From an uncultured Clostridia bacterium (GTDB lineage Bacteria > Bacillota > Clostridia > Oscillospirales > Acutalibacteraceae), in contig CALWIU010000045.1 of the NCBI GenBank assembly GCA_944380845.1, positions 164-64,163 of the forward strand: a DNA stretch of 64,000 bases, written 5' to 3'. The translations under genes were made by a program, and so were the position numbers. Positions 10,346-59,929 of this stretch are shown here, one piece after another. The notes beneath the pieces are model-generated. The model did no database searches, was not told the DNA's origin, and saw nothing but the letters and a program-made list of their open reading frames with translations. Position 1 is the stretch's first letter, and each line of letters starts with the position of its first letter.

Positions 10346-10363
10346 GAAAAGAGGTGCGGCGGT

Positions 10364-14909: not shown

Positions 14910-14938
14910 TTGACTTTTTCCTGAACATGGTGTAGAAT
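14910..14938 (+). promoter_or_regulatory. Sigma-A-type promoter
   Basis: TTGACT, 17 nt, TAGAAT, with TG at the extended -10 position. Upstream of the bare-dockerin gene. Confidence 0.6.
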
Positions 14939-14996: not shown

Positions 14997-15569
14997 ATGA
15001 GAAAAAGTTCTAAAAGCCTTTTGGCTGCAATTGTTTCTGTTGTCCTTGTCCTGTGCATGAGCATGGTCGTTGTCTTCACGGCATTTGCGAATGACGCTCC
15101 CGTCGTTGCTGTTGAGCCGACGACTGCGGAAGGAACGACGGCTGCTGCCGACGATTCTACCGTTCCTGCTGAACCCGAAGAGACAACTACCGCTGTTGCT
15201 GAGCCCACCGAGCCCGTTGAGCCGGATGAAACCACAACGGATGCTGCTGATACCACTGAGCCCGTTGACCCGGTTGTCGGTAAAGTCGGCGATGTCAACA
15301 AGGACGGCGTGATTAACACCACTGACGCTCGTCTTGCACTTCGTATTGCTGTTGCTCTTGAGCATGCTGATGAACTTCAGCTGATCCTTGCTGATGCCAA
15401 CGGCGATATGTATGTAAAGAGCGGCGACGCCCGTATGATCCTGAGATATGCTGTACAGCTTTCTAACAGCGATGACTGCATCATCGGCAGCGATGTCGTA
15501 GCGAGCCAGGTCGCTGAGGATGGCGTAACGGCTGTTAACGATGTCAGCGAGGTTGTTACCGCTGCGTAA
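14997..15569 (+). CDS. Secreted dockerin-only protein (signal peptide, Thr/Pro/Glu linker, dockerin)
   Basis: MRKSSKSLLAAIVSVVLVLCMSMVVVFTAFA signal peptide. Low-complexity EPTT/EPVE linker. Two dockerin Ca-loop/helix segments, GDVNKDGVINTTDARLALRIAV and ADANGDMYVKSGDARMILRYAV (nt ~15288-15461). GGAGG RBS. Confidence 0.8.
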   Translation: MRKSSKSLLAAIVSVVLVLCMSMVVVFTAFANDAPVVAVEPTTAEGTTAAADDSTVPAEPEETTTAVAEPTEPVEPDETTTDAADTTEPVDPVVGKVGDVNKDGVINTTDARLALRIAVALEHADELQLILADANGDMYVKSGDARMILRYAVQLSNSDDCIIGSDVVASQVAEDGVTAVNDVSEVVTAA

Positions 15570-15771: not shown

Positions 15772-17187
15772 ATGGCAAAAAAGAAAGCACTTTCCCAAAC
15801 AAGGCTGAGCGGCCGCATTCTTTGGAACCTGCTGATGTTCGGCTTTATGGGACAGGTCGCATGGAATGTAGAAAATATGTTTTTTAATACCTTCCTGTTT
15901 AACTCGGTTTATGCCGATGCGCCGCAGCAGGCGGTGGACGGATCGATCGGCGTGATGAGCGCCATTAACCTGATGGTTGCCCTGTCGGCGGCGACGGCGG
16001 TGATCACGACCTTTATCATGGGCGCATGGAGCGACCGGATGAACCGGCGCAAGGTGTTTATTTCCGTCGGGTATTTGATTTGGGGCTTGACCGTTATGGC
16101 CTTTGGGTACATCACCAAGGACAATACCGCCGCGCTTTTTTCCCTGAGCGACCCGGTGCGTATTTTGACCGCGACGGTTACCATCGTGATCGTCATGGAC
16201 TGTGTCATGACCTTTTTCGGTTCGACTGCCAACGATTCGGCGTTCAACGCCTGGGTAACGGATGTAACGGATTCCGGGAACCGCGGCACGGTGGAGGGCA
16301 TTCTTGCCATCATGCCTTTGGCAGCCATGGCGATCGTCATGGGGCTTGGCGGCGCCATTGCCACCATCGGTTATCATATCTTTTTTATCGCGCTCGGCGT
16401 TTTTGTTTCTCTTTGCGGCGTGGTTGGATTTTTCACTTTAAAGGATTCCAAAAACGGGGAAAAACAAAAAGACGGCAGCTATTGGCGCGATTTAGTTTAC
16501 GGGTTCCGTCCGTCGGTGGTGCGGGAAAACGACCGGCTGTACCTGACGCTGGGCGCTGCCTGTATCTTTAACATCGCCGTGCAGGTGTTTTTCCCGTATT
16601 TGTTCATTTATTTACAGCACGGGCTGGGGCTGGATCTGAATTCTCTTCTTGCCAATCTGACGCCCGGGGTGATCGTGCTGCTTGTGGTTGCTGTTGCGGT
16701 GATTGTGACGGCGATTATCGGCATGGGAAAACTGGTGGATCGTTACGGAAAAAAGCATTTTATCAATTTATCGGTCATTCTGTTTGTTGCCGGGCTTTTT
16801 GCCGGGACCTTTGCCGAAAGCCTCGGAATGTTTCTTGTCTGCTTTATTCCCGCGCTGATCGGCTATGGGATGCTGATGATTATGCTGAATGCGGCGGTGC
16901 GTGATTTTACGCCGGAAAACAAAGTCGGGCTGTTTCAGGGGGTTCGGATGATTTTTATCGTCCTGATTCCGATGATCGTCGGCCCCACAATCGGAAATTT
17001 GTCGATCCGGTTTTTTGATTCGGTACCGTATACCAACGATTACGGGATCGTGACCGAATGCCCCGGCGGCTCCATGTTCGCCGCGGCGGCGGTTGTATCG
17101 CTTCTGATCTTTTTGCCGGTGTACTTTTTGCAGAAAAAAGGCATTGATATCAGGCAAACGGAGAAAAGCAGGAAAGGGGAAAAATAA
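15772..17187 (+). CDS. MFS transporter (GPH/oligosaccharide:cation symporter-like)
   Basis: About 12 TM segments. WSDRMNRRK loop between TM2 and TM3, typical of MFS/GPH carriers. 471 aa. Confidence 0.85.
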   Translation: MAKKKALSQTRLSGRILWNLLMFGFMGQVAWNVENMFFNTFLFNSVYADAPQQAVDGSIGVMSAINLMVALSAATAVITTFIMGAWSDRMNRRKVFISVGYLIWGLTVMAFGYITKDNTAALFSLSDPVRILTATVTIVIVMDCVMTFFGSTANDSAFNAWVTDVTDSGNRGTVEGILAIMPLAAMAIVMGLGGAIATIGYHIFFIALGVFVSLCGVVGFFTLKDSKNGEKQKDGSYWRDLVYGFRPSVVRENDRLYLTLGAACIFNIAVQVFFPYLFIYLQHGLGLDLNSLLANLTPGVIVLLVVAVAVIVTAIIGMGKLVDRYGKKHFINLSVILFVAGLFAGTFAESLGMFLVCFIPALIGYGMLMIMLNAAVRDFTPENKVGLFQGVRMIFIVLIPMIVGPTIGNLSIRFFDSVPYTNDYGIVTECPGGSMFAAAAVVSLLIFLPVYFLQKKGIDIRQTEKSRKGEK

Positions 17188-17188
17188 A

Positions 17189-19120
17189 ATGAAAAAGAAT
17201 TGGCGTAACTTTCTGGCAGCCGGCCTGGTGCTCGCGCTGCTGCTGAGCTCTTTGCCGCTTTCGGCAGGCGCGTCGGAGTGGTCGGATAATCCGGTGGTCC
17301 TGCTGCCCGGATACAGCTCTTCCGCTTTGGAAAAGGTGAATGCGGACGGCACAACGGAACAGGTCTGGGGTGTGGATACCGATGCGATCCTGCAAGCCGC
17401 ACTGTCGCGTATTGCGCAGCTTGCCGTGGGGCTGGGACTGGCTGCTTCCGGCAGTGATCCGGCTTATCTTGCGAAAATCGTCGGTGAGGAATCGTATGCG
17501 ATTTTGGACGGCGTGCGCTGTGCGCCGGACGGAAGTTCGGTTTATGATGTGCATACGGTGTACAGCGAGCCGGAAACGACCAACAACGCCTATTATCTGG
17601 CGCATCCGGACGAGAGCTGGGCAATGTATGAAAGCGATATCATGGGGGATCTGGGCGAGCTTGTCGATCCGGGAATGCTGTTTAATTTTAATGTGGATTT
17701 CCGCATGGGCGCGATCGATTGTGCCGAACAGCTTCATGTGTATATTCAGAAGGTTTTGGCGTATACCGGTAAAGAGAAGGTCAATCTGCTGGCAATCAGC
17801 CACGGCGGGCAGGTCGCCGGAACCTATTTGAGTCTGCACGGCACGGAAGGGCTTGTCGATCATGCGCTGCTCGTTGTGCCGGCGCTGGGCGGCGCCGGTC
17901 TGGCCTATGATTTTTTGAACCGGGATATTGACTTTGATGAGCAGACTCTGGTAAAATTTATTGAGCACGGATTTATGAGCGAGACGGATTATCACTGGCT
18001 TGTCCGTGCGGAAGCGACGGGTTTTTTAGATGATGTTCTGTATGAACTGATCCCGTATTTTCTGGATTCGGTGCTGTATTGGGGCAGCATTTGGGACTTT
18101 ATTCCCACTGCGTATTACGAAGAGCTGAAAGCGCGGTATCTGGATGAAACACAGTCTGCACAGCTCATCGAAAAATCAGATCGGATGCACGAGCAGATCA
18201 TGCCGAATTATGCCGAGTCTTTTGCCGCCTGCCGCGCAGCCGGGGTGAAGCTGAACATCATGGCGGGCACCGATCTGCCGATTGTAACCGGACTTCAGCA
18301 GAACTCCGACGCAATCATTACCACGGCATCTTCTACCGGCGCGTCATGCGCGCCTTTTGGTCAGCGGTTTGCCGATGGGTACCGGGGCAAAGGCTGCGGC
18401 GACGCAAGTCACGAACACCTTTCGCCTGCCATGACGGTGGATGCTTCCACTGCGTATTTGCCGGAAAACACCTTCTTTGTGGAAGGGCTGTTTCACGGCA
18501 TGGAATATTGGGATGCGCATACTTTTGAGCTGCTGAAAAAGCTGCTGCTCACCGATGATATCGAGGATGTGCATTCCGACCCTGCTTTTCCGCAGTTCCA
18601 CGCCACGACCAATCCGGAACAGGCGGTCACGGCGTATTTCGATCATAGTCCCGAGGGATATGTATCTGAGGAAGATACCTGCCTGCAAATCAAAAATCTT
18701 TCGTCCAGGTATCCGGTTCTGGTCGTTTCCGTGGATGTCGCCGGGGCAGATCTGGTGATCCCGGGCGGGAAACGGATCGCGCCGGGAGAGACGCTTTCCT
18801 TTGCGGTCAGCGGCGATGTGGGCGAAACGGCAAGACGGAAGGTGCAGGTTAAAATCCATTATTGCACTTCGCTGGAAACCTTTACGCCGGTGGGCGAACG
18901 GACGCTCAGTTTTATGACGCTGGGCAAAACCGACGCCGCCTTTGATCCGCAGAATCCGTATGCCCCGCTGGATGTGATCAAAAGCGCATTTCCGGAAATT
19001 GCCGGCGACCGGGCGGAAAGCGTTTTGACAAAGCTGGGGCTTTTGGAGTTTGTGGAAATGTTCTTTGATATGATCTATACGATTATAAAAAATATTCAAT
19101 TGCTATTTCAGATAGGATGA
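17189..19120 (+). CDS. Secreted alpha/beta-hydrolase, lipase/LCAT-like
   Basis: Start re-set to ATG 17189, 1 nt after the MFS stop: MKKNWRNFLAAGLVLALLLSSLPLSAGA signal peptide. Motifs NPVVLLPGYSSS, nucleophile NLLAISHGG, NSDAIITTAS, GLFHGME. Paralogue of 7298..8803. Confidence 0.65.
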   Translation: MKKNWRNFLAAGLVLALLLSSLPLSAGASEWSDNPVVLLPGYSSSALEKVNADGTTEQVWGVDTDAILQAALSRIAQLAVGLGLAASGSDPAYLAKIVGEESYAILDGVRCAPDGSSVYDVHTVYSEPETTNNAYYLAHPDESWAMYESDIMGDLGELVDPGMLFNFNVDFRMGAIDCAEQLHVYIQKVLAYTGKEKVNLLAISHGGQVAGTYLSLHGTEGLVDHALLVVPALGGAGLAYDFLNRDIDFDEQTLVKFIEHGFMSETDYHWLVRAEATGFLDDVLYELIPYFLDSVLYWGSIWDFIPTAYYEELKARYLDETQSAQLIEKSDRMHEQIMPNYAESFAACRAAGVKLNIMAGTDLPIVTGLQQNSDAIITTASSTGASCAPFGQRFADGYRGKGCGDASHEHLSPAMTVDASTAYLPENTFFVEGLFHGMEYWDAHTFELLKKLLLTDDIEDVHSDPAFPQFHATTNPEQAVTAYFDHSPEGYVSEEDTCLQIKNLSSRYPVLVVSVDVAGADLVIPGGKRIAPGETLSFAVSGDVGETARRKVQVKIHYCTSLETFTPVGERTLSFMTLGKTDAAFDPQNPYAPLDVIKSAFPEIAGDRAESVLTKLGLLEFVEMFFDMIYTIIKNIQLLFQIG

Positions 19121-19133
19121 GATGAGGTAACCC

Positions 19134-20768
19134 ATGAAGGAACTGTATTTTGTGAATTCTCTGGAAAATATTTTCCCCGATGAAGTCCCCGGCGGACAAC
19201 TGACGCATATTTCGATGCTTCGCAACGAAAGGTATTCTTTTCAGTTGGTCGTGTATTTGCCGGGCGAGGAAACGACAGTGCGCGTCGAACCGCCGGAAGA
19301 ATTGACAGACTGCCTGCATTTTTATGATGTCAAAGCCATTCCGGTTCATGTGCCGGCAAAGGAAAAGTGTGATGATGATTTTCTGCTGCGCGGCGGCAAG
19401 CCGGGCGACTATCCCGACCTTCTGGTTCCCTGCGACGGCGAAGTGCACTGGCAGGGAAAAGGCTGGCACGCTCTTTGGCTGGAAATCGATCCGGGCGAAC
19501 CGCTTGCCGCCGGACAGCGTGAGCTGTCCTTTGCGGTCGAATTGCCGAGGGGCAAGACGACGCTTTCGCTGGAATTGTCGGTGGTGGATGCGCTGCTGCC
19601 GGAACAGGAGCTGGTCTGCACCCACTGGTTTTATTGCGACTGTCTGGCGGATCAGTACGAAGTGCCGATTTTTTCCGAGGAACACTGGCAGCTCATTGAA
19701 AAGTATTTGCGTTTTGCCGTTCAGCACGGCATCAACATGATTTTAACGCCCCTGTTTACACCGCCTCTGGATACGGCGATCGGGTCGGAGCGTCCGACGG
19801 TTCAGCTTGTCGGAGTGACGGCGGAAAACTACGGGTATTCTTTTGATTTTTCGCTTTTGGAACGCTGGATCGATCTTTGCAATGCCTGCGGGGTACGGTA
19901 TTTTGAAATGTCCCACCTCTTTACCCAGTGGGGCGCCAAACACGCGCCGAAGATCGTTGCCAAAACCGCCGAAGGGGAAAAACGCCTGTTTGGATGGGAA
20001 ACCAATGCAGCCGGCGCGGAATACAAGCATTTCCTGAAATGCTTCGCGAAGGAGCTGGATCGTTTTCTTGCGGAAAAAGGCGTCAGGGAGCGCTGTTTCT
20101 TCCATGTTGCCGATGAACCGGGATTTAAGGACTTTATCAGCTACCGCAGCGCCTCCAGGATCATTTCGGAGTGCTTTGGAGAATATCGCAGCATCGATGC
20201 GCTGTCGGAGTACCTTTTCTATCAAAGCGGTCTGACCAAAACGCCGATTCCCTGCATTGACGCCATCGAAGCGTTTAAAGGCAGAGTGCCGGAGCTTTGG
20301 ACTTATTATTGCAGCGTTCCGGCAAAGGACAATTATGTCAATCGCTTTTTGTATTATCCATCGGTTCGCAACCGTGCGCTGGGCGCGGCGCTGTACCGCT
20401 ATAACTGCAAAGGCTTTTTGCATTGGGGATATAACTTCTGGTATACCGTGCTTTCCAAAGGCCGGATCGATCCTTTCACCGACACCGCTTCCGGCGGCGG
20501 CTTCCCGGCTGGCGACGGTTTTGTGGTGTATCCGGGCAAGGACGGACAGCCTTTGCCGTCTCTGCGCCTGAAAGTTTTTTACGATGCGTTGCAGGATCAG
20601 CGGGCGCTTGCCTGTCTGGAAAGCCTTGTAGGCAGAGAACAGGCGCTTCAGACGCTCGCCGATCAATGGGAAGGCTATTCCTTCCGCAGTTATCCGAAAA
20701 CCGGAGAAGATCTGATTGCTCTGCGTGAGGCGGTCAACGATGCGATTGCCGGCGCTGTCAGGAAGTGA
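19134..20768 (+). CDS. DUF4091 / glycoside hydrolase family 123-like protein (cytoplasmic)
   Basis: FHVADEP (Asp-Glu pair as in GH123-type catalytic centres), HLFTQWGAKHAPKI, GFLHWGYNFW, FPAGDGFVVYPG. No signal peptide. Confidence 0.6.
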   Translation: MKELYFVNSLENIFPDEVPGGQLTHISMLRNERYSFQLVVYLPGEETTVRVEPPEELTDCLHFYDVKAIPVHVPAKEKCDDDFLLRGGKPGDYPDLLVPCDGEVHWQGKGWHALWLEIDPGEPLAAGQRELSFAVELPRGKTTLSLELSVVDALLPEQELVCTHWFYCDCLADQYEVPIFSEEHWQLIEKYLRFAVQHGINMILTPLFTPPLDTAIGSERPTVQLVGVTAENYGYSFDFSLLERWIDLCNACGVRYFEMSHLFTQWGAKHAPKIVAKTAEGEKRLFGWETNAAGAEYKHFLKCFAKELDRFLAEKGVRERCFFHVADEPGFKDFISYRSASRIISECFGEYRSIDALSEYLFYQSGLTKTPIPCIDAIEAFKGRVPELWTYYCSVPAKDNYVNRFLYYPSVRNRALGAALYRYNCKGFLHWGYNFWYTVLSKGRIDPFTDTASGGGFPAGDGFVVYPGKDGQPLPSLRLKVFYDALQDQRALACLESLVGREQALQTLADQWEGYSFRSYPKTGEDLIALREAVNDAIAGAVRK

Positions 20769-23011: not shown

Positions 23012-23040
23012 GAAAAAATGATTGACATATCCTTCTGTCC
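23012..23040 (+). promoter_or_regulatory. Consensus sigma-A promoter
   Basis: TTGACA, 17 nt, TATAAT; both hexamers are perfect. Confidence 0.65.
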
Positions 23041-23129
23041 GTTATATAATTCTATTGTATATAATGCAGTTATGCTCTGTATTTATCGATTTTCTCTGTT
23101 TCAACTAAAAAACGGAAGGAAGTTTTCTG

Positions 23130-25106
23130 ATGAGGAACCAAAAGACTTTTGCCTTAAGGCTGGTCGCGTTTCTGCTGGTCTTTTGCGTTGCAGTCGGTGT
23201 TTTGCCAGTGGCGGCATCGGCGGCTGACAGTACGCTGACAGCAGTTTCGCCCGCTGAGGCAGTGGGGGAATATGTGATTCCGGACGGCACCACCGCTATC
23301 GCGGATAATGCCTTTGCCGGATGTACGGAATTGACAAGCGTTGTCATTCCTGCCTCCGTTAAAACCATCGGCGCGAATGCGTTCCAGGGATGCACATCCC
23401 TTGCAACGGTGAAATTTAACGGCGTGCTGGATCGTGTGGGGCTGTTTGCTTTTAATGATACGCTCTGGTATAAAAACTATCCCACCGACTTCATTTATGC
23501 TTCCTCTCCGAGCGGCTTTAATGTCCTGATCGGTTATAAGGGCACGGATGAGAATGTTGCCATTCCCGCTTCCACCACCGTTATCGGTGAGGGCGCTTTC
23601 TACGGCAACACGACCATTAAATCCGTTATTATCCCGCTGCGTACCACCAAAGTTTCCGATTACGCGTTTTACGGCTGCACGAACCTTGCGGATATCACCG
23701 TCCGCGGTGCGCTTACCGACTGCGGCTTCATGGCGTTTGAGGGCACGGCGTGGCTGGATTCCTATGCCGGTGAATTCATCATCTCCGGTACCATGCTCAT
23801 TAAATACAACGGCGACAAAGATGTTGTTTATGTTCCCAATACGGTGACGCGCATTGCTTCCTATGCGTTCTATGACTGCAAGAGCGTAACGACGGTTCGT
23901 GTTCCCGCTTCCGTAACCGATATCGGCGTAAACGCCTTCTATCTTTACAACGACGGCGGCAACAACAAATACGCTGAAATTTATTGCTGGGAAGATACCT
24001 ACGCGGAAACCTACGCCAAACAGAACGGCCTGTCCATTTCTTCGTACCTGAACTATCCGGGCGATGTGGATTCCAACGGCAGCGTTCAAACCGCTGACGC
24101 GCGCGTTGCTCTTCGTTACGCCGCCAAGCTGGAACGCGATCTGACGGATGCACAGTTCCTTGCCGCTGACATCGGCTGCGATGGAAACATCACTTCTTCC
24201 GATGCGCGTTTGATCCTTCGCATGGCAGTCGGCCTTGCCGAGTATACCCCCGAGGATCTGCTCTTTAAGCCCAATACGGATTTTGAAATCCTGATGGCGT
24301 ACACCGAAGCGGTTCGCCTTGCCTATATCAAGGAAGCCGGTTATAAACTCACGGAGTATCAGAGCATTGACGATGTAAAGGTCGGTCCGTCCTTTATCCG
24401 CACCGCGCTGAACAATCCCTTTAAAACCGACTTGACCAAAGAAGACAAAGCGGAAGCACAGACGCTCTCTTCCGATACCGTCGAAGCACTGGAAAAGCTG
24501 TATCTTTGCGACTTGACCAACAATTCCATTATCAAGGATGCAAAATGCGAGCTGACCGAAAGCGATAAATATTATATCACCATCACCTTGAACGATGAAG
24601 TGGATGTCAGCGACACCGATTCTCTGACCCGCTGCATGTTCCCGGTGGTCGGCAGAGAAGATATGGATCGCCTGCTGAATGAAGAGGAAGGCACCTGGTA
24701 TCACGCTTCTTCTACCGATTTTAATTATAAGATTACTTACCAGAATTGCACATTGAACGCCATCGTCGATGTTATGACCGGCAATATCGAAGACATTGAA
24801 ATGAAGATGGGTTATCGTTTCGATGTCTGGGGTCAGATTTACCTGACGAAAATTCACAACAGAGACGATAAGAACGATCCTGTTGGTTACGCCACCAGAA
24901 CCGATACGGTAAAATATACCGATTTCGATTACACGGTGAAAGAATTTACCACCACCACGACTGAACCGACAACCGTTTATGAAGGAGAAGATCCGGAAAA
25001 TCCCGTAACGGTTGTGCCGACCACCAAAAACAATGACGCCGGCAACTTCCTTGCCGGAATCGGCGATGCGCTGGGCGGTATCTTCGGCAGTCTGATCGGC
25101 GGCTGA
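23130..25106 (+). CDS. Secreted BspA-type leucine-rich-repeat protein with internal dockerin and unknown C-terminal domain
   Basis: Signal peptide. Repeated IPxxVxxIGxxAFxGCxxL units (LRR_5/BspA type). Dockerin GDVDSNGSVQTADARVALRYAA...ADIGCDGNITSSDARLILRMAV (nt ~24060-24236). About 290 aa of unassigned sequence, a TTTTEPTT linker and a Gly-rich tail GNFLAGIGDALGGIFGSLIGG. Confidence 0.8.
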   Translation: MRNQKTFALRLVAFLLVFCVAVGVLPVAASAADSTLTAVSPAEAVGEYVIPDGTTAIADNAFAGCTELTSVVIPASVKTIGANAFQGCTSLATVKFNGVLDRVGLFAFNDTLWYKNYPTDFIYASSPSGFNVLIGYKGTDENVAIPASTTVIGEGAFYGNTTIKSVIIPLRTTKVSDYAFYGCTNLADITVRGALTDCGFMAFEGTAWLDSYAGEFIISGTMLIKYNGDKDVVYVPNTVTRIASYAFYDCKSVTTVRVPASVTDIGVNAFYLYNDGGNNKYAEIYCWEDTYAETYAKQNGLSISSYLNYPGDVDSNGSVQTADARVALRYAAKLERDLTDAQFLAADIGCDGNITSSDARLILRMAVGLAEYTPEDLLFKPNTDFEILMAYTEAVRLAYIKEAGYKLTEYQSIDDVKVGPSFIRTALNNPFKTDLTKEDKAEAQTLSSDTVEALEKLYLCDLTNNSIIKDAKCELTESDKYYITITLNDEVDVSDTDSLTRCMFPVVGREDMDRLLNEEEGTWYHASSTDFNYKITYQNCTLNAIVDVMTGNIEDIEMKMGYRFDVWGQIYLTKIHNRDDKNDPVGYATRTDTVKYTDFDYTVKEFTTTTTEPTTVYEGEDPENPVTVVPTTKNNDAGNFLAGIGDALGGIFGSLIGG

Positions 25107-25115
25107 ACCTGCTCT

Positions 25116-25144
25116 ATCTGCGGGCTTGCAAACAGCCCGCAGAT
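25116..25144 (+). terminator. Hairpin after the LRR gene (no U-tract)
   Basis: 10-bp stem ATCTGCGGGC / GCCCGCAGAT. It is followed by an A-rich rather than T-rich tail, so terminator function is uncertain. Confidence 0.4.
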
Positions 25145-25277
25145 GTAAAAAAATTTCGGGAATCATTTGCTTGAATCGCGAAAAAATAGGATCGGGAGCG
25201 TTGTCTCCTTGTAAAAAGCGCACAATATTATTGTGTCATTTTTGGCGGATTTTATGCGTTGCATGTGGAAAAAGTGT

Positions 25278-25306
25278 TTGACATTTGCGAATCGGTATGA
25301 TACAAT
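25278..25306 (+). promoter_or_regulatory. Near-consensus sigma-A promoter of the cohesin gene
   Basis: TTGACA, 17 nt, TACAAT. About 120-nt leader to the ATG at 25427. Confidence 0.65.
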
Positions 25307-25426
25307 TAAGCGTGTTCAGACACTGAGGCACGCATTCGCCGCCCAGGTCTAAATGCTTTACTGTATATAAATGAATCGTCAACCGGCGGTTCTTTATATA
25401 AAAAATTTTCAAAGGAAGGTTCTAAA

Positions 25427-26086
25427 ATGAAACTTGCAAAAAAAGTACTTGCTTGTGTTGTCGTTCTTGCGATCATGAGCACACTTGCCATCAGTGCTTT
25501 CGCTGCTGATGCTTCCTTGGTTCTGTCGGCTGATAAGAGCGCCGCTGAAATCGGCGACACCATTACCGTGGATCTTTCCATGAGCAATGCTACTGGCCTT
25601 GAGAATCTTGGTTTGTTCGTCAGCTACGATGATGCTGTTCTTCAGCTTGAGTCTGTCGCTTCTTCTAACGACAACGCGATTGCTGAGCAGAACGATGCCG
25701 GTGATGTTAGTGTTGGTTATATGAACATGAACTCCAACTCTAACGCTGACCTTGCTCTTGCGAAAATGACCTTCAAGGTTATCGCTGAAGGCAATGCGAA
25801 GATCACTGCTGCTCTCATCACTGATGACAATGGTGAAGCTGATATCGCTGGTGTTACCGTTGGTTCCACCTCCACCTCCATCAGCGTAACCGGTACCGAG
25901 AAGACCACTGCTGCTCCCGACGAGCCCAGTGCTGCTCCTTCTGATACCACCGCTGCTCCTGCTGGCGACGATACCACGAAACCCGCTGACGAAATTCCTG
26001 CTACCGGCGACGCTGGTATTGCTGTAGCCGCTGGCCTTGTTGTTCTTGCTGGCGCTGCTTTCGTTGCTTCCAAGAAAAGAAAATAA
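25427..26086 (+). CDS. Cell-wall-anchored single-cohesin protein (ScaE-like anchoring scaffoldin) with IPATG sortase signal
   Basis: Signal peptide ...AISAFA. Cohesin-like module (GDTITVDLSMSNATGLENLGLFVSYDDAVLQLESV ... LAKMTFKVIAEGNAKI). Thr/Pro/Ala linker. IPATG (25994-26008), then hydrophobic AGIAVAAGLVVLAGAAFVA and KKRK. Confidence 0.75.
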   Translation: MKLAKKVLACVVVLAIMSTLAISAFAADASLVLSADKSAAEIGDTITVDLSMSNATGLENLGLFVSYDDAVLQLESVASSNDNAIAEQNDAGDVSVGYMNMNSNSNADLALAKMTFKVIAEGNAKITAALITDDNGEADIAGVTVGSTSTSISVTGTEKTTAAPDEPSAAPSDTTAAPAGDDTTKPADEIPATGDAGIAVAAGLVVLAGAAFVASKKRK

Positions 26087-26113
26087 TCTCCGGTAACGGG
26101 TGATTAACAAAAA

Positions 26114-26139
26114 GGGGTCTGTTTCAGATCCCTTTTTTT
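26114..26139 (+). terminator. Rho-independent terminator 1 after the cohesin gene
   Basis: GGGGTCTG / CAGATCCC stem (one G-U pair), 3-nt loop, T7. Confidence 0.75.
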
Positions 26140-26142
26140 GTA

Positions 26143-26179
26143 TTGCTGTTTCTTTTTACAGGAAACAGCAATTTTTTTT
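26143..26179 (+). terminator. Rho-independent terminator 2 (tandem)
   Basis: TTGCTGTTTC / GAAACAGCAA 10-bp stem, T8 tail. Confidence 0.8.
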
Positions 26180-26297
26180 GTTTTCTCGCCGAATAACGAC
26201 GCGCAGCGTACCACCAAAAACAGGGGGTAAGGGTTGTAAGCCCATATTGGGACGAGAAGCACGCGCAATGGTTGTTTGCACGAGTTGCGTCATGCTG

Positions 26298-26684
26298 AGC
26301 ATAAAAGATCGGTTATACAAAAAAGAGCAGCGAGGTCTGGCATAAAAAACGGTGGCTCTGGTATAAATGGTAGATCTGTGTCGAGCGATGCGGATCAACT
26401 GCGAGAAAAGGGAGCGGGCAGTGTCAAGCATAAAAGATCGGTTGTGCCAAAAAAGAGCAGGAAATTTGGTATAAGAAATCGACGCACTCTGGTATAAATG
26501 GTAGGTCTGTGCCGAGCAAAGCGGATCAACTGCGAGAAAAGGAGCGGCAGTGACGAGTATAGTAAATCAGTTGCGCCAAAATAAGAGCGGGGAGGTCTGA
26601 CATAAAAATCGGCGGTGAAGAAGAAAATAGCAGGTCTTTGCAGTATATGGAAGTTGAACTGCCCGTGTATGGCGGTGATACCGG
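26298..26684. repeat. Imperfect tandem repeat, 3 units of 129 bp
   Basis: Units start at 26298, 26427 and 26556. Shared blocks are AGCATAAAAGATCGGTT, AAAAAGAGCAG, CTCTGGTATAAATGGTAG(A/G)TCTGTG and GCGGATCAACTGCGAGAAAAGG. Units 1 and 2 are clearly similar; unit 3 is more degenerate. No intact ORF spans the units. Confidence 0.85.
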
Positions 26685-27054
26685 CAGAACCATAGTCAGG
26701 GAAAAAGAATGTTTGGCGCATCTGTTTGTCAATATAAAATGTTTTTTCCGATGTCTATAGGTAGCAAGTGTTTTGTGCTTTCAGAAGACAGATGCCGCAA
26801 AACAGCCGTTCTTTTCTTTTAAAACAGTGTTTTTTATCCGAAAGGACGGCATTCGCTAAAAGAAGGGAATAACAATAAAGACTGGATAAAAAACAGTGTG
26901 GAAGGTTATCATGCTTTTTCGACTCAATAAGCAAAACCACGGGTATAACGGAAAGGGAATGCACAGGAAAGGGATTCTCCATTTTTGGAAGGTATTGTAC
27001 AGAAGCAGATGCAGTTGACTCGACAATAACCGGTTCCCTAACAATGTCTTTTGC

Positions 27055-27089
27055 AGGTAAAAATTGCCCCGAAGCGGGGCTTCGGGGCA
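27055..27089 (-). terminator. Rho-independent terminator of the amidase gene
   Basis: CCCCGAAGC / GCTTCGGGG stem (27067-27088). On the minus strand it is followed by AATTTTTAC. Confidence 0.7.
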
Positions 27090-27175
27090 GCTTCCGTCAG
27101 CAGCAGGTATCTATGCCGGATCAGGGAATGCTGTTATTTTGCGGCCTGTGTGACGGAAGCAGAAAGCGGCAGGCT

Positions 27176-27922
27176 TTACGAATCAAGTTTGGTGGCTTCA
27201 CGCAGGATCTCGCGGGCGTCGGAGGTGGTTACCTTCCCGTCATTATTCATATCCGCAGCTTCTTCCGCTTCCGCCGTCAGTTTTTCCAATGCGGTTGCCG
27301 CACGCAGCGCCAGACGCGCGTCAGCGGTGGTTACTTTCCCATCGCCGTTGACATCGCCTTTCCGCCGTTCTTTGTTCCATGGAACGCCCACAATTTCACA
27401 AAGGCTCTTTGCGATGGCGTCTGCGGTCTTGTCAAACGAGCGATCCCACGCGGTATTGTCCTTCGTGGATGTGATAAAGCCCAGTTCCAACAGACCCGAT
27501 GCACATTTCGTGTATTTATTGACGGCAAAATCCGTGTAGGAAGGCGCGCCTTTTTTTACGCCGCGGTTTCGCAGACCGTCTGCTTCACACGCCGCCCGCA
27601 GAATTTTTGCCGCTTTTTCAACGGTTTTTTCGGTGGCGTCGCTTTTTACCCAAATTTCGTTCCCGGTCGCGTCCGGGGACGCGGAATTGCGGTGAATCGA
27701 CAGATAATATTGCGCGCCCCAGGCGTTGGATTCCGCTGTGCGGTCATTAAGCTTCTTTTCCGTGTCGTCCGTACGGGCGTATTTTACCGACACGCCGCGT
27801 TCCGTCAGCCGTTTGCCGACAGCAAGGGTCATTTTCAGCACATCGTCTTTTTCTTTTCGTTTGCCGCTGCCGGCGCCGCCGTCCTTGCCGCCGTGTCCGG
27901 CATCCAGATAAATTTTCGCCAT
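27176..27922 (-). CDS. N-acetylmuramoyl-L-alanine amidase (Amidase_3) fused to a C-terminal dockerin; no signal peptide
   Basis: MAKIYLDAGHGGKDGGA..., YLSIHRNS, GLLELGFITS = Amidase_3 (CwlC/CwlD type). C-terminus GDVNGDGKVTTADARLALRAAT...ADMNNDGKVTTSDAREILREAT (nt ~27185-27358). Start re-set to ATG 27922 (GGAGGGAG RBS). Confidence 0.9.
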   Translation of the reverse strand: MAKIYLDAGHGGKDGGAGSGKRKEKDDVLKMTLAVGKRLTERGVSVKYARTDDTEKKLNDRTAESNAWGAQYYLSIHRNSASPDATGNEIWVKSDATEKTVEKAAKILRAACEADGLRNRGVKKGAPSYTDFAVNKYTKCASGLLELGFITSTKDNTAWDRSFDKTADAIAKSLCEIVGVPWNKERRKGDVNGDGKVTTADARLALRAATALEKLTAEAEEAADMNNDGKVTTSDAREILREATKLDS

Positions 27923-28379
27923 AGTCTCCCTCCTTTCAGGCAAAGAGAACTTTGCCCGTCAACAGAATATGGCGGATCCGCGCAGGGGGCAGCATCTGTG
28001 AAAAAGAGGGGAAAAAGAAAGATTGCCGTTCATTAACAGCTTTTTTCTTTTGTTTTCGTGCACACCAGCCATGAAGAAAGCGGCGTGCAAAATGCTTTGC
28101 CGCGGGCTTTCTTTGTATGTAAATGGATTTTCTTTGTATGCAATCGGTCAGAATGGAATCCTGCTTGCGCTTCCGCGCATTTGTTTCCCGCCGTTTGCAG
28201 AATTCGGCATGGAAAAAGTGAATGCAAATCATTTTGGTATTCCTGTTTTGTGACTTTCCGTCTGTTTGTCAGAGAGCAGCCCGTTTTTTAAAACAATTTT
28301 TTTGACCGGAGGCGACAGGTATAATGTTCCGATTTTTGCACATACTACGGGTGAAAGAAATCGGAAAGGATGTTTCGCG

Positions 28380-29072
28380 ATGGATTTGAAAAAAAAGACA
28401 ATCATAACCGCGTCTGTTTTATGCTGTTGTGCGGCGATCGGCGGCGCCGCCTATTTTGGAATTACCAACAACGCGGATTCAGATGATGTATTTGTGCCGC
28501 CTACCGGGTATGTGCGGGAGACGACGGAAGCACCGCTGTATACCGACCCGACAGAACCCCCAGCCACGGAGCCGGTCGAACACGCGGCGGTTAGCGATGC
28601 TGCCGATCAGACCGAGACTTCTTCGGCAGAAAGTGCGACGGTCAGCGGCACCTTGCCGCGCCCCAATTATTTTGAACTGCCGCTTGGACTGGATATTTTG
28701 CAGGATTACAGCCGCACCGAACCGGTATTTAACGCCACCATGGGGGATTGGCGCACGCATAACGGTGTGGATTTTGCAGGCGTAATCGGCGATCCGGTCA
28801 AGGCATCGGCTGCGGGTTTTGTAACCGATGTATATGACGATCCGATGTATGGGGTCGTGATGGAAATCGATCACGGCGGCGGAATCACGGCAAAATACTG
28901 TGGTTTGGGAAAAGGCAGCACCATCCCGGTCGGTACGGAGGTCAAAACCAACGATACCATTGGCTATCTGGGAACGGTACCCTGTGAATCGGACGCCGGC
29001 GCGCATTTGCACATGGAAATGACGGAAAACGGGGAGATCGTTGATCCGTTGGTATTGTTTGAATTGGCATAA
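28380..29072 (+). CDS. Membrane-anchored M23/LytM-family metallopeptidase
   Basis: N-terminal TM IITASVLCCCAAIGGAAYFGI. LytM motifs HNGVDF (HxxxD) and HLHME (HxH). The architecture resembles SpoIIQ-type proteins, but that assignment is not supported further. Confidence 0.85.
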   Translation: MDLKKKTIITASVLCCCAAIGGAAYFGITNNADSDDVFVPPTGYVRETTEAPLYTDPTEPPATEPVEHAAVSDAADQTETSSAESATVSGTLPRPNYFELPLGLDILQDYSRTEPVFNATMGDWRTHNGVDFAGVIGDPVKASAAGFVTDVYDDPMYGVVMEIDHGGGITAKYCGLGKGSTIPVGTEVKTNDTIGYLGTVPCESDAGAHLHMEMTENGEIVDPLVLFELA

Positions 29073-42167: not shown

Positions 42168-45100
42168 ATGACAAATGCTTTTTACGGCAGACGCTCTGCT
42201 TGCAGGGTGCTGTCTGTCTTCCTGGCGCTTCTGATGGCGCTCTCCGTTCTTCCGATCGGCCTGGTCAGCGCTACGGCGGCTTCTGCGCCGCTGCGCGTGG
42301 CGACGCTTGCCGATCTCCATTATTTCGCCGAGGCGGATATGGGCAATAAGGACGAAGGCTTCACAGCGGCGATGGCAACCAATAACACCTTGCAGATGGA
42401 CGGGATTCTGGATTCCGTTTTTGCTGCTCTTGAACGCTCGGCGAAAGAAAACGGGCTTCAGGCGGTGCTGATTGCCGGTGACTTGACTTACGAAGGTGAA
42501 AAAAGCGGCCATGAGGCGCTTGCCGCCCGGCTGAAAGCCTTTGAAGAAGAAACCGGGCTTTCCGTCTATGTGATCAACGGCAACCATGATATCAACAATT
42601 CCGGCGCGGCAAAGTATATCGCCGATGAAAACGGGAATTATTACTGGGAATATGCCGATACGGTTACCGCAGAAGAATTCAAAAGTATTTACGCGGATTT
42701 CGGCTACAACGAGGCGATTTCCGTTTATGAACCTCCGGTGGGCGAGGAAGCCGGCGCTTTGTCGTATTCGGCGCATTTGGGCGACGGTTATCGTTTGATT
42801 GCGATCGACGCCGGTAAATATTCTCCCGACAGCACCGAAGCCGGTATTTATGAAAAAGAAACCGGCGGCAGCATTTCCGATTCCCTGATGCAGTGGATCC
42901 TTGCGCAGCTTGCTGAAGCGAAGGCTGCCGGTGAAATTCCCATCGGCATGACGCACTGGAACCTTGGCGATCAGAATTATTTTTCCACAGTGGCTCTTCA
43001 GGGCTTTGTGATGGACAACTGGCAGCAGGATGCGGAAACGCTTGCCGATGCCGGAATGCACTTTGTTTTTACCGGACATACCCATGACAGCGATATTTCT
43101 TCCGTGGTTTCCGATCACGGCGAGACGCTGTATAATATCACCACCTGTTCTTTGGGCAACTACCCGAACCAGTACCGCGAAACGGTCTTTACCCCCGGTG
43201 CGGACGGCAGCGTCAGCGCTTCCTTTGAAAAGCACGACTGCGACGAGGTGCTGCCGGTAACGGCGGCGGGCAAAACATACCCGGTTCCCTTTAGCGCATC
43301 CTCTTTTGCCCTTTGCTACGGCTCAACCCCCATGGAGTATCTTTCCAAACTGATTGAGCCCGGCCTGAGAAGCCTGTTGTCTGATATCAAGGGCGCCGGT
43401 CTGGTGCGCTATATCGAGGATAAGGCGGATTTCTCCCTTTATTCCTATTTTGATGAACTGCTGCACGGCGGTTTGATGATTAACAACCAGAACATTGTTA
43501 CCGCACAGAACCTGATGGGCGTTGTCAATGACATTGCCCAGCAGATCGAAGACCGGTATATTAACGATCCGGATTATACCATTGAGCTGGTCGATACCTT
43601 CCTTCAGACGCTGCTGGACATGCAGATTTCAGAGTATCCCTGCTCAAAATTCGTCAGTGAATACGGCTTCGGCAGCAACTCCCGCCCCGGCAATCTGGGC
43701 GATCTGATGTTCTCGATCTTCGTGTATAAAACCAACGGCAACGAGGATATTTCCGACGATCCCTTTATGCTGGATGTGCTGGATCGTTTGCAGAGCGGCG
43801 AACTGGTCACGGATTTGATCGGCCTGCTGCGCACGGAGGCGATCGACAAGATCATTGTCGATGATTTCCTGTCAAACATCAATTTGAACCTGGCTTCGTT
43901 CTTTGTGGATTTCGGCTCGAACGATGTCAAGCAGATCATCAACTTTGTGAAAAACTACGCGTCCGGCGAGGCTGTGAAAAAGATCATTGAATATTATGTC
44001 AATGAAGAAACCTTGCAGTTGTACAATCAGGTCGCTTCCGAAGGTCTGGCGCTGATTGGTATTCAGGGCGTGGACATTCTGGCGATTGTTTCCGGCCTGA
44101 TCGCAATGATCGGTGAACCGCAAATCGATCTGAGCGATGTGAGCATCCGCAATATTGCCGACACGATCCTTGGTTTCGGCGTTTTGGATCAGTACGGCAA
44201 GAGCCTGGATGAAGTGATCGATTATTTCCTGAACAAATACATTACCGATGATGTAAAACAGGGCGTCGGATATCAGCTTTCTATCATGCTGGAATCCTTT
44301 GTGATGGATTCCAACCCGCAGGAAAAGGGCGATTATGATGTGGTTTATACCTATCAGGGCCCTGTCGCTGTGGAAGCAACGGCGGAAAATCTGCGCAAGC
44401 CTTCGCTGGTTGCGCCCTCTTATGGCAAAGATGCGACGACCCAGTTCAATTTCAGCTGGACGACAAAATATTCTGTCACCGGTACGGACATTGAATTTTA
44501 TCCGGTAACCGGAGACTCGCTGCCTTCCTTCACCGGCACGCCGGTGACCGGCGTCAATGTGATCGCCGACTATGAGCCGCTTACCCGCGAGTATTACGGC
44601 ATCGATTTCGGGATCACGGGATTTTTACCCTACGAGATCCAAACCATCCGTCATACCATTACCCTGACCGGGCTTGAGCCGGGAACGACCTATATGTACC
44701 GGATCGGCAGTGCGGAAAACGGCTGGTGGAGCGATATCGGTTCGTTTACCACTTCCGGCGGCGATGATTCGCAGTTTACTTTCTTCCACATGACCGACAC
44801 GCAGTCTACTTCCCCTGAGCAGTACGAAAACGGCTGGGCAAAGGTGATGCAGGCCGCTTACAGTCTCTATCCCGACGCACGGTTTGTCCTGCATACCGGT
44901 GATTTTGTGGATAACGGCGACAACTTCAAGCAGTGGCAGTGGTTCTTTGATTCGGCTGCCGGCACCATCCTGAATTCGGCGATCATGCCGGTATCCGGCA
45001 ACCATGACGCCTACGGCATGAATGTGCTTGTCAACAACTTCAAGATCAATTATGACGGCGAAGACTATGATATGGATGATCCCTTTGCCGACCTGGACAG

Positions 45101-45983
45101 TTACTTCCAGTACACGGACAGCGGCATCTACTATTCCTTCGATTACAACAACGCGCATTTCGCCATTTTGAACAGCAACGATCTGAAGGAAAACGGTGAG
45201 CTGACCGATGAGCAGCTGGAATGGCTGACCAATGATATGCAGAGCAGTGACGCGGAATGGAAAATCGTTGCTTTCCACAAAGCGGTTTATTCCAACGGCG
45301 ATCACTACAAAGATGACGATGTGGTGGGTCTGCGCGGTCAGCTGGCGACCCTGATGCCGCAGTTGCAGGTTGACCTTGTGCTGAATGGTCACGATCATGT
45401 ATACTTCCGCACCGAGCCGCTGAACAACAATACCGTTGATGCAGACTGCAACCACGATGTGATCATGCAGAACGGTACGGCGATTGTGGAAGCGATGATC
45501 AATCCCGACGGTACGATCTATTCCATCAACGGCAGTGCCGGTGTCAAGAGTTATACGGGGGTTTCCTCAGAAGAAACCAAAGATTATTTCCCGGATGCGG
45601 CGGCAACTTATCCGTCCGATGAACCGATCTTTACGGCGATTACCATCCGTGACAACCAGTTGATCTTTAAATCCTATGCCGTCGGCGATAACAGCGCTTT
45701 GACGGAAATCGATAGCTTCGGCATCATTAAGGACTTTAACGAGCTGAAACGCGGCGATGTGGATTTGAACGGTTATGTCAATTCGACCGACGCCCGGCTG
45801 GCGCTTCGCTTTGCGGTCGGTCTGGATAAGCTGACCGGCAGAAGCCTGATTGCCGGCGATGTGGATGAAAACGGCGTCATCAATTCCACTGACGCCCGCC
45901 TGATTCTCCGTGCCGCCATCGAGCTGGAGCCTTTCGAGAATCCGTATGTTGACGATACCTATGTCAGACCGAATCTGGCATAA
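42168..45983 (+). CDS. Secreted dual metallophosphoesterase (calcineurin-like plus purple-acid-phosphatase-like) with C-terminal dockerin
   Basis: Signal peptide. MPE domain 1: LADLHYF, AGDLTYEG, INGNHD, FTGHTHD. PAP N-terminal FN3-like region: FNFSWTT...PGTTYMYRIGS. MPE domain 2: FFHMTDTQ, HTGDFVDNGD, SGNHD, VAFHKAVYS, LNGHDHVYFR. Dockerin GDVDLNGYVNSTDARLALRFAV...GDVDENGVINSTDARLILRAAI (nt ~45753-45926). Confidence 0.85.
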   Translation: MTNAFYGRRSACRVLSVFLALLMALSVLPIGLVSATAASAPLRVATLADLHYFAEADMGNKDEGFTAAMATNNTLQMDGILDSVFAALERSAKENGLQAVLIAGDLTYEGEKSGHEALAARLKAFEEETGLSVYVINGNHDINNSGAAKYIADENGNYYWEYADTVTAEEFKSIYADFGYNEAISVYEPPVGEEAGALSYSAHLGDGYRLIAIDAGKYSPDSTEAGIYEKETGGSISDSLMQWILAQLAEAKAAGEIPIGMTHWNLGDQNYFSTVALQGFVMDNWQQDAETLADAGMHFVFTGHTHDSDISSVVSDHGETLYNITTCSLGNYPNQYRETVFTPGADGSVSASFEKHDCDEVLPVTAAGKTYPVPFSASSFALCYGSTPMEYLSKLIEPGLRSLLSDIKGAGLVRYIEDKADFSLYSYFDELLHGGLMINNQNIVTAQNLMGVVNDIAQQIEDRYINDPDYTIELVDTFLQTLLDMQISEYPCSKFVSEYGFGSNSRPGNLGDLMFSIFVYKTNGNEDISDDPFMLDVLDRLQSGELVTDLIGLLRTEAIDKIIVDDFLSNINLNLASFFVDFGSNDVKQIINFVKNYASGEAVKKIIEYYVNEETLQLYNQVASEGLALIGIQGVDILAIVSGLIAMIGEPQIDLSDVSIRNIADTILGFGVLDQYGKSLDEVIDYFLNKYITDDVKQGVGYQLSIMLESFVMDSNPQEKGDYDVVYTYQGPVAVEATAENLRKPSLVAPSYGKDATTQFNFSWTTKYSVTGTDIEFYPVTGDSLPSFTGTPVTGVNVIADYEPLTREYYGIDFGITGFLPYEIQTIRHTITLTGLEPGTTYMYRIGSAENGWWSDIGSFTTSGGDDSQFTFFHMTDTQSTSPEQYENGWAKVMQAAYSLYPDARFVLHTGDFVDNGDNFKQWQWFFDSAAGTILNSAIMPVSGNHDAYGMNVLVNNFKINYDGEDYDMDDPFADLDSYFQYTDSGIYYSFDYNNAHFAILNSNDLKENGELTDEQLEWLTNDMQSSDAEWKIVAFHKAVYSNGDHYKDDDVVGLRGQLATLMPQLQVDLVLNGHDHVYFRTEPLNNNTVDADCNHDVIMQNGTAIVEAMINPDGTIYSINGSAGVKSYTGVSSEETKDYFPDAAATYPSDEPIFTAITIRDNQLIFKSYAVGDNSALTEIDSFGIIKDFNELKRGDVDLNGYVNSTDARLALRFAVGLDKLTGRSLIAGDVDENGVINSTDARLILRAAIELEPFENPYVDDTYVRPNLA

Positions 45984-59068: not shown

Positions 59069-59929
59069 TTATAACAGCTGGTTGATGTCATCCAGCACAT
59101 CCATCATTTCCAGAAGCTCGACCTTCTGGCAGGTGGTTTCGTGGGCGTGCATGACCTTCTGCGGTTCAGCGGTGAAGTTCTGGAAATCCAGTTTGGTGGT
59201 GCGGTCGTTCTCCGTCTGCCAAATGCTCAGCAGGTTGATGCCGTCATAATAATAGGTTTCGGTTTTGCCATCGGCGGTCTGGGTGTAAACATCGACCGTT
59301 TTCCCATTCCATTCGCCTTCGGATTTGACATAGCCTTCATCCAGCAGCGCGGCGGGTTTTTTCAAACGGATCATTTCCGTTGCCATTTCCTCGCGGATCG
59401 CTTCCAGATCAAAATGTTCGCTGCCCGGCTCCAGAGAATCGATGATGCGGTTGAGCGCGTCGATATCCTCCATCGTCAGTTCGCAATAGCGGGCGGAGGG
59501 CTCATGGATGAAACGCATTCCATTGTCAGACAACAGAAGTCCCATGGAAGAAGCGCCGTTTTTAATCAGGAACATCAGCTCATCGCCGTTTTGCCCCAGT
59601 CCCATTGTGGTGCCGTCGGCGGTGGTCTCATAATAATAGGAATCATAATAGGTCAGGCTTTCCAGCTTCAGCGCACAGCGCAGGATCAGACGCGCATCGG
59701 CGCTGGTTACCTTGCCGTCGCTGTTGACATCGGCTTTTTGCGCCGTCTGCTCGTCATACGGGTCAAGGCTCAGCGCAAAGCGCAGCACCTGACGGGCGTC
59801 ATCGGTTTTGGTTTGACCGCTGCCGTTGACATCGCCGACAACCGCGAAGGCGGGCAAAACAAAAATCTGTGCGCACAGCAGCGCTGCCGCCGCTACCGCT
59901 GTCAGTTTTTTCAAAAAATGTTTTTTCAT
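59069..59929 (-). CDS. Secreted protein with N-terminal dockerin and a LolA-like/unknown C-terminal domain
   Basis: Start re-set to ATG 59929 (GGAGGAG RBS). Signal peptide ...VLPAFA. Dockerin GDVNGSGQTKTDDARQVLRFAL...ADVNSDGKVTSADARLILRCAL (nt ~59663-59836). The C-terminal domain is paralogous to the lipoprotein at 40351..41235. Confidence 0.8.
   Translation of the reverse strand: MKKHFLKKLTAVAAAALLCAQIFVLPAFAVVGDVNGSGQTKTDDARQVLRFALSLDPYDEQTAQKADVNSDGKVTSADARLILRCALKLESLTYYDSYYYETTADGTTMGLGQNGDELMFLIKNGASSMGLLLSDNGMRFIHEPSARYCELTMEDIDALNRIIDSLEPGSEHFDLEAIREEMATEMIRLKKPAALLDEGYVKSEGEWNGKTVDVYTQTADGKTETYYYDGINLLSIWQTENDRTTKLDFQNFTAEPQKVMHAHETTCQKVELLEMMDVLDDINQLL

Follow-up and report, generated by a model that had tools for sequence, protein, structure and literature searches.

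What is a single-cohesin protein with a sortase sorting signal doing among dockerin genes, none of which encodes a glycoside hydrolase? The question is raised by a 64-kb stretch of DNA from an uncultured Clostridia bacterium (GTDB family Acutalibacteraceae; contig CALWIU010000045.1), referred to here as the window. A first-pass annotation had placed six open reading frames (ORFs) in it, those of the cohesin protein (25427..26086), an upstream leucine-rich repeat (LRR) protein with a dockerin, a downstream amidase with a dockerin, and three further dockerin proteins, and had read them together as a general cell-surface docking board. All six ORFs are present, and a Pfam check of their products gave one Cohesin and five Dockerin_1 matches, each above its gathering threshold (PF00963, 24.1 bits; PF00404, 22.9 bits). 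The best explanation of the cohesin protein, and one that we hold to be likely, is a sortase-anchored, single-cohesin anchoring scaffoldin of the ScaE/Sca2/cSca5 kind that displays secreted dockerin proteins.

We characterized the 219-aa product of 25427..26086 (+ strand) using Pfam, NCBIfam, AlphaFold2 (AF2) modelling with Foldseek, profile matches to the PDB and a family alignment. It is composed of a signal peptide (aa 1-27; 25427-25507), a cohesin module (aa 28-160; 25508-25906), a Thr/Pro/Ala linker (aa 161-189) and a C-terminal sorting signal (aa 190-219; 25994-26083), in which IPATGD is followed by a transmembrane segment and KKRK. The cohesin module scored 36.4 bits against PF00963 over aa 33-146. 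The AF2 model, built with 31 homologues, had a pLDDT of 93-98 across aa 31-160 and is all-beta and helix-free, with about ten strands. When this model was compared with the PDB using Foldseek, cohesins accounted for all of the top 28 matches (E from 3.5e-8; target-normalised TM no higher than 0.72), and the adhesin domain of CLIPPER was one non-cohesin among the fold matches. A profile of the cohesin family matched PDB entries at 7.5e-10 to 1e-5, including A. cellulolyticus ScaB, C. perfringens NagJ and C. cellulolyticum CipC. The first-pass annotation had staked its claim on the cohesin profile and on a beta-sandwich fold; the profile threshold is passed, the fold is that of a cohesin, and the 25427..26086 product is a true cohesin.

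The sorting signal, IPATGD-AGIAVAAGLVVLAGAAFVAS-KKRK, exceeded the NCBIfam cut-offs of Rumino_NPXTG (29.2 against 23.5) and TIGR01167 (18.2 against 15.9), while it fell below the Pfam cut-off of Gram_pos_anchor (17.8 against 20). With 36.4 bits for the cohesin and 29.2 for the anchor, the description of this gene as a single cohesin with a sortase signal is borne out. The protein contains neither a dockerin nor a catalytic module, and its order of signal peptide, cohesin and wall anchor is the architecture of an anchoring scaffoldin.

This cohesin shares the window with exactly five dockerins, as counted by a six-frame motif scan and a hidden Markov model (HMM) built from those five dockerins; a cohesin-domain HMM returned a single cohesin. 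By exact-protein look-ups at both window ends we gained an extension of ~17 kb, bringing the genome covered to ~81 kb, and no further cohesin, dockerin or sortase was found in this extension. Besides the LRR protein and the amidase, the dockerin carriers are a secreted 190-aa protein (14997..15569, +) with a signal peptide, a Thr/Glu/Pro linker and no module other than its dockerin (15288-15461); a secreted 1271-aa protein (42168..45983, +) with two calcineurin-like Metallophos domains, a Pur_ac_phosph_N domain and a C-terminal dockerin (45753-45935); and a secreted 286-aa protein (59069..59929, −) in which the dockerin (59651-59842) directly follows the signal peptide. Their Dockerin_1 scores are 30.1, 29.3 and 33.7 bits, respectively, as expected from the three additional dockerin proteins named earlier. 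Labels given to the carriers held for the LRR protein, the amidase, the dual phosphoesterase and the bare dockerin; the "LolA-like" label of 59069..59929 is without sequence support, as its C-terminal domain matched no Pfam family at cut-off and had no NCBIfam, PHROG or PDB sequence match.

All five dockerins carry the duplicated Ca-loop/helix segment previously described for them (GDV[ND]x[DN]G...DARxxLRxA), with both segments visible and three minor loop deviations: G at position 3 in segment 2 of the LRR protein, M at position 6 in segment 2 of the 14997 protein, and S5/T8 in segment 1 of the 59069 protein. The recognition helices are near-identical among the five dockerins and between both segments ([ST]x-DAR-xx-LR-xA). 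Since the helix residues are nearly the same in both segments, the type I recognition code would by analogy point to one specificity common to the five dockerins and to a dual binding mode.

Directly upstream of the cohesin gene lies the gene for a 658-aa protein (23130..25106, +), in which the expected BspA-type LRRs and dockerin were both recovered (LRR_5, 3e-36; Dockerin_1, 26.1 bits) and to which we add two further parts, an X domain and a Gly-rich tail. Its signal peptide (aa 1-33) is followed by BspA-type LRR_5 repeats (aa 45-300; 23262-24029), an internal dockerin (aa 308-372; 24051-24245; Pfam match aa 310-362), the X domain of ~225 aa (aa 375-600; 24252-24929) and a C-terminal part composed of a Thr/Pro linker and a Gly-rich hydrophobic tail, GNFLAGIGDALGGIFGSLIGG (25044-25103), that is found in close relatives only. 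The X domain of this protein, hereafter LRR-Doc-X, is alpha+beta, is kept across the LRR-Doc-X family and was modelled with pLDDT above 90; it had no relative in Pfam, in PHROG or by PDB fold (best E 0.02, TM no higher than 0.25). We compared the window with 36 related loci at species level, drawn from metagenome contigs and metagenome-assembled genomes (MAGs) and designated by L-numbers. At 11 of these (L006, L007, L010, L011, L016, L017, L034, L035, L037, L038 and L041), a full-length LRR-Doc-X homologue, with 34-89% identity over the LRR, dockerin and X parts, lies directly upstream of the cohesin gene, and the pair persists down to ~26-30% cohesin-domain identity. Given this synteny, we consider the LRR-Doc-X/cohesin pair to be a conserved module of the clade.

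Further upstream on the same strand lie a gene for another secreted 658-aa protein without a Pfam match (17144-19120, +) and then a gene of the beta-N-acetylgalactosaminidase family GH123 (19134-20768, +), which lies 2.4 kb ahead of the LRR gene and encodes a product without a dockerin. The GH123 family of Limousia is mucin-related, comes without dockerins and is confined to one species (PMC12997984).

Both genes of the pair are preceded by promoter-like sites close to the sigma-70 consensus. The site of the LRR-Doc-X gene (23022..23050, +) is TTGACA-17-TATAAT, a 12/12 match located 80 nt before the ATG, and that of the cohesin gene (25278..25306, +) is TTGACA-17-TACAAT, an 11/12 match with an extended TG and a 120-nt leader after it. 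Both strands of the window together hold just two matches of 12/12 and five of 11/12, with ~0.02 perfect sites expected by chance, and we therefore do not attribute the two sites of the pair to chance. The first-pass annotation had assigned near-consensus promoters with 17-nt spacers to the cohesin gene and to the 23130, 14997 and 42168 genes, a weaker one to the 59069 gene and none to the amidase gene. This ranking was reproduced: the 14997 gene (14910-14938, +) and the 42168 gene (42072-42100, +) have 10/12 sites, the 59069..59929 gene has a weak 9/12 site (59989-59961, −), and no promoter-like site was found for the amidase gene. Matches at the 9/12 level are as frequent in shuffled sequence and show no excess. 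The second perfect TTGACA-17-TATAAT match in the window (62337-62309, −) stands ahead of a secreted protein of ~383 aa (61104-62270, −) that has no family assignment and no dockerin.

Two tandem terminator-like hairpins with T-runs (26109..26172, +) directly follow the cohesin gene, which is accordingly read as a monocistronic unit. The hairpins lie within a non-coding spacer of 1.09 kb (26087..27175) between the cohesin and amidase genes that also holds a 131-nt tandem repeat (x2.4, 26298-26608) found in same-species contigs only. At L006 and L007 this spacer is absent, and the amidase gene follows ~170-230 nt after the cohesin gene. Sister contigs have a called "gene" of 189-195 aa 3' of the cohesin gene, which we rejected as spurious because it contains a stop in the window, has a non-coding-like composition and overlaps the 131-nt repeats. 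At the Rfam gathering threshold, neither the cohesin leader nor the spacer matched a structured RNA; the sole Rfam match of the window is the bacterial small signal recognition particle (SRP) RNA (RF00169, 57 bits; 62488-62585, +), which is preceded by an 11/12 promoter-like site (62417-62445).

We next turn to how this cohesin varies among its relatives. The family comprises ~30 proteins of 206-275 aa with one architecture, all from metagenome assemblies and MAGs labelled as Eubacteriales, Oscillospiraceae, Ruminococcaceae, Acutalibacteraceae or Clostridia, and the sources, where named, are mostly animal gut. The window's own species is represented by several ENA and Logan assemblies and is missing from the retrieved GTDB representatives, of which the closest match, from an "uncultured Eubacteriales" MAG, is 73% identical. 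A profile search of the full library found ~20,000 cohesin-bearing cluster representatives; the best 150 matches include ~45 short single-cohesin proteins along with many scaffoldins with 3-29 cohesin stretches. Locus L015, a contig of a related MAG, carries two tandem single-cohesin genes with NPXTG-type signals (8950-9636 and 9938-10756), a duplication of the anchor gene.

Across the family, mean column conservation is 0.80 for the signal peptide and 0.90 for the sorting signal, compared with 0.43 for the cohesin domain. The same pattern is seen against L007, the nearest locus by flanking genes: nucleotide identity is 43-58% across the mature cohesin and linker (25500-25999), while it is 85% in the signal-peptide segment (25400-25499), 84% in the sorting-signal segment (26000-26099), ~74-89% in the LRR gene and 70-86% in the amidase gene. 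The corresponding protein identities are 38-41% for the cohesin domain, compared with 94% for the LRRs, 88% for the X domain and 89% for the amidase catalytic domain. Phylogenies are incongruent as well, the LRR protein being nearest to L007 (89%, versus 81% for L006) and the cohesin nearest to L006 (69%, versus 41% for L007). Amongst same-species strain contigs, non-synonymous to synonymous codon differences in the cohesin gene are 5:2, 4:1, 4:1 and 3:0, whereas four neighbouring genes pooled for one strain give 6:24 (Fisher p = 0.016), with the caveat that the counts are small and the strains non-independent. Four metagenome contigs of the window's species (L053, L054, L001 and L005) stop within the cohesin gene or immediately behind it; this fits strain-level polymorphism or downstream repeats that break assemblies. 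Taken together, these comparisons show the cohesin to be a hypervariable cassette that diverges much faster than the adjacent genes, and it appears to be under diversifying selection and/or exchanged between lineages, as part of an abundant exposed protein.

How would such a protein work? The cohesin protein would be exported by Sec and joined to peptidoglycan by a sortase encoded elsewhere, after which Ca2+-loaded dockerins of secreted proteins would dock on the anchored cohesin, probably in either of two orientations. LRR-Doc-X would be the first candidate partner, because its gene is the conserved upstream neighbour of the cohesin gene. On the surface, the adhesin-like LRR-Doc-X would then appear together with the large phosphoesterase and with proteins that have no assigned function.

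Anchors of this description are known from Ruminococcus and Limousia. The cohesin of Ruminococcus bromii Sca2 binds the dockerins of an LRR protein and a peptidase in addition to those of amylases in vitro (Ze et al. 2015, PMC4611034), and Sca2 has been proposed as a general surface anchor in a species where most dockerin proteins are non-CAZyme, that is, not carbohydrate-active enzymes (PMC4611034). By description, Sca2 shares with the window protein a signal peptide, one cohesin, a C-terminal sortase signal and the lack of a dockerin and a catalytic module; it differs in length (534 aa versus 219 aa) and in that its system includes amylase dockerins, whereas the window has no CAZyme dockerin. 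R. bromii has a single cohesin in the PDB, that of Sca5 (7urp), and it matches the window cohesin weakly.

The Limousia protein cSca5, with a cohesin and an LPxTG signal, is encoded by the top-expressed gene of its genome; most dockerins are predicted to be ligands of this protein, among them the dockerins of peptidases and of further non-GH proteins (PMC12997984; GH, glycoside hydrolase). Limousia pullorum cSca5 resembles the window protein in its N-terminal cohesin and C-terminal LPxTG-type signal, and its top expression is consistent with the near-consensus promoter of the window's cohesin gene. It is longer (~322 aa from a 969-nt gene, versus 219 aa) and anchors multi-cohesin scaffoldins with mucin-degrading GHs, none of which is visible in the window. 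Limousia genomes were formerly labelled Anaeromassilibacillus or Acutalibacteraceae sp., and many relatives of the window cohesin come from Acutalibacteraceae MAGs. The part of the supplementary data of the Limousia paper (PMC12997984) that was available to us contains no LRR_5 or Amidase_3 annotations.

ScaE of R. flavefaciens is likewise sortase-anchored, and the dockerin proteins of strain FD-1 hold 28 LRR modules, 16 peptidase modules and 155 unknown domains (PMC2930009). In R. flavefaciens and R. champanellensis, ScaE has one cohesin, is attached covalently to peptidoglycan by sortase and takes the dockerins of the non-enzymatic proteins CttA and ScaB, in genomes that similarly encode many LRR-, peptidase- and unknown-domain dockerin proteins. 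Its cohesin (4iu2, 9gvb) is a mid-ranking structural match to ours (ranks 41-47), and its gene belongs to a sca gene cluster, whereas the window's cohesin gene sits amid housekeeping genes. ScaE carries a type III cohesin with a helix, whereas the model of the window cohesin is helix-free. Finally, NagJ, NagH and NanJ of C. perfringens provide a case of cohesin-dockerin pairing beyond plant-fibre degradation, and NagJ cohesins rank near the top in both sequence and structure comparisons; however, in these toxin complexes the cohesins are located inside glycoside hydrolases and not in sortase-anchored scaffoldins.

Several observations weigh against a sortase-anchored cohesin that displays the dockerin proteins of this genome. 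An S. aureus SrtA query (phmmer) and a TLxTC-type regular expression yielded no credible sortase gene among the ORFs of the window and of 41 loci, and none was found in the ~17-kb extension. At 25 of the 36 related loci, there is no LRR-Doc gene upstream of the cohesin homologue. In L010 (7127-9031) and L016 (7485-9380), LRR-Doc-X has the first dockerin segment only, with the X domain beginning in place of the second, and on sequence grounds we regard this dockerin as naturally truncated. Between the window and L007, identity is 88% for the dockerin of the LRR protein and 38% for the adjacent cohesin; either the interface tolerates divergence or the cognate cohesin lies elsewhere, and tight one-to-one cohesin-dockerin co-evolution is not evident, since the dockerin is conserved where the cohesin diverges. 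The amidase has no upstream in-frame start with a signal peptide and so lacks an export signal. Orthology with cSca5 was also rejected, as the neighbours in L. pullorum ET540 are thioredoxin and tRNA-Ile genes, with no LRR-dockerin gene, and the loci are non-syntenic.

The first-pass annotation had further proposed that the docking board serves non-carbohydrate functions in place of a cellulosome or amylosome. Pfam found no GH or carbohydrate-binding module (CBM) family in any of the five dockerin carriers, just as had been claimed, and in the ~81 kb covered there is no multi-cohesin primary scaffoldin. That part of the proposal stands, while restriction to non-carbohydrate functions is undecidable from 64 kb plus ~17 kb. 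It has a serious competitor, to which we give nearly even weight: the anchor may be part of a larger multi-enzyme system for the breakdown of polysaccharides or glycans, akin to a cellulosome, amylosome or mucinolysome, with multi-cohesin scaffoldins and dockerin GHs encoded outside the window; the apparent restriction to non-carbohydrate functions would then stem from sampling. Such a system would be compatible with the anchoring scaffoldin and would compete only with the non-carbohydrate reading. In R. bromii and in Limousia, the latter a genus of Acutalibacteraceae in GTDB, an anchor of this type holds CAZyme complexes as well as non-CAZyme dockerin proteins (PMC4611034, PMC12997984). The cohesin profile also scores high against many scaffoldins with 3-29 cohesin stretches, five dockerin genes per 64 kb imply a large repertoire, and a GH123 gene lies 2.4 kb before the LRR gene, although its product is without a dockerin. 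How telling the absence of GH and CBM domains from all five carriers is depends on the genome used for comparison. In Limousia ET540, where 21 of at most 55 dockerin proteins are CAZymes, five non-CAZymes would be drawn by chance in ~9% of cases, and in R. bromii, with 4 GH13 among 26 dockerins, this would happen in about a third to nearly half. That the ~17-kb extension added no cohesin or dockerin also counts against a larger system.

A second alternative is that the cohesin anchor and LRR-Doc-X form a dedicated two-gene adhesin, anchor and passenger, with the other four dockerins binding cohesins elsewhere and no hub at this locus. Conservation of the pair across 11 species-level loci, down to ~26-30% cohesin-domain identity, favors this view, as does the fact that both genes own the best promoters of the region. 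However, with near-identical recognition helices in the five dockerins, it is not obvious how the cohesin would discriminate between them, and the comparable anchors Sca2 and cSca5 are promiscuous. The conserved dockerin beside a non-conserved cohesin further argues against tight pairwise co-evolution, and 25 of the 36 loci are without an LRR-Doc gene upstream of the cohesin homologue. We consider a dedicated adhesin unlikely.

Far less probable still is that the modules do not interact at all, the dockerins being Ca2+-binding or stabilising elements and the cohesin-like protein a generic immunoglobulin (Ig)-like surface or S-layer-type protein such as a variable antigen or phage receptor, for although the poorly conserved cohesin surface (0.43 versus 0.80-0.90 for signal peptide and sorting signal), the hypervariable cassette and the CLIPPER adhesin domain among the fold matches would agree with it, both modules exceed curated thresholds, the top 28 fold matches are all cohesins, and the co-occurrence and synteny parallel experimentally validated systems.

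Returning to the anchoring scaffoldin, the amidase is the dockerin carrier that fits least readily. Its 248-aa product (27176..27922, −) consists of an Amidase_3 catalytic domain (aa 1-185; 27368-27922; match aa 11-181, 4e-34) and a dockerin (aa 188-248; 27179-27361; Dockerin_1, 43.1 bits), and its gene and the cohesin gene converge only in the three species that are closest. Both domains exceed their cut-offs, in agreement with the description of a peptidoglycan amidase with a dockerin; as a surface-displayed member it is in doubt, as a signal peptide is absent, and display would therefore require a non-Sec route. The ATG at 27922 has a strong Shine-Dalgarno sequence, AAGGAGG, ahead of it, the catalytic domain begins at about residue 4, and L006 and L007, the two closest relatives, share this N-terminus. 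In PHROG, the endolysin family phrog_435 matches the protein from residue 1 (4.8e-41). An N-terminal Amidase_3 domain without a signal peptide is the layout of endolysins and CwlC-like amidases. CwlC-type and phage Amidase_3 lysins are signal-less proteins of ~250 aa with an N-terminal Amidase_3 domain and a short C-terminal targeting domain, which is of SPOR, SH3 or LysM type in those proteins and a dockerin here. In size and layout the window protein is thus presumably akin to B. subtilis CwlC, with the dockerin replacing the wall-binding domain. A prophage origin was considered and rejected: the flanking genes encode the cohesin protein, an M23 peptidase and housekeeping functions, and the position is conserved in three species. 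The M23 peptidase, membrane-anchored and encoded divergently to the amidase gene (28374-29072, +), makes for two adjacent peptidoglycan hydrolases.

If the amidase does use the cohesin, it might reach the wall via lysis or a holin-like route, and its dockerin would stand in for a wall-binding domain. Dockerin-bearing cell-wall hydrolases and the idea of a "lyticome" are on record (PMC6403190), and a dockerin on a signal-less, endolysin-like amidase hints at cohesin-directed wall targeting. A broader scenario would bring this together with the cassette: an exchangeable, fast-diversifying cohesin would face conserved dockerin partners, serving as the docking site of LRR-Doc-X and at the same time as a target of phage or host antibody, and the amidase may use it as a wall receptor. 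We offer this scenario tentatively and regard it as rather unlikely in its entirety.

The idea of a general docking board is not in itself new, since Sca2 of R. bromii and cSca5 of Limousia have both been proposed to act in this way, and a catalogue already exists of non-cellulolytic "scaffoldin-containing" bacteria that encode dozens of dockerin proteins. What is new here is the synteny of LRR-Doc-X and cohesin genes in 11 loci and the hypervariable cohesin cassette. Our analysis supports cohesin-dockerin pairing as a general surface-display device in gut Clostridia, beyond fibre degradation, a view already published and to which the gain is incremental. It extends the ScaE/Sca2/cSca5 anchor type to short forms (~206-275 aa) in an uncultured, metagenome-only clade of Oscillospirales from animal guts. 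The cassette poses the puzzle of how dockerin recognition survives the diversification of its receptor, and the LRR-Doc-X/cohesin gene pair provides a concrete candidate cognate pair, one that includes a domain without a known fold match.

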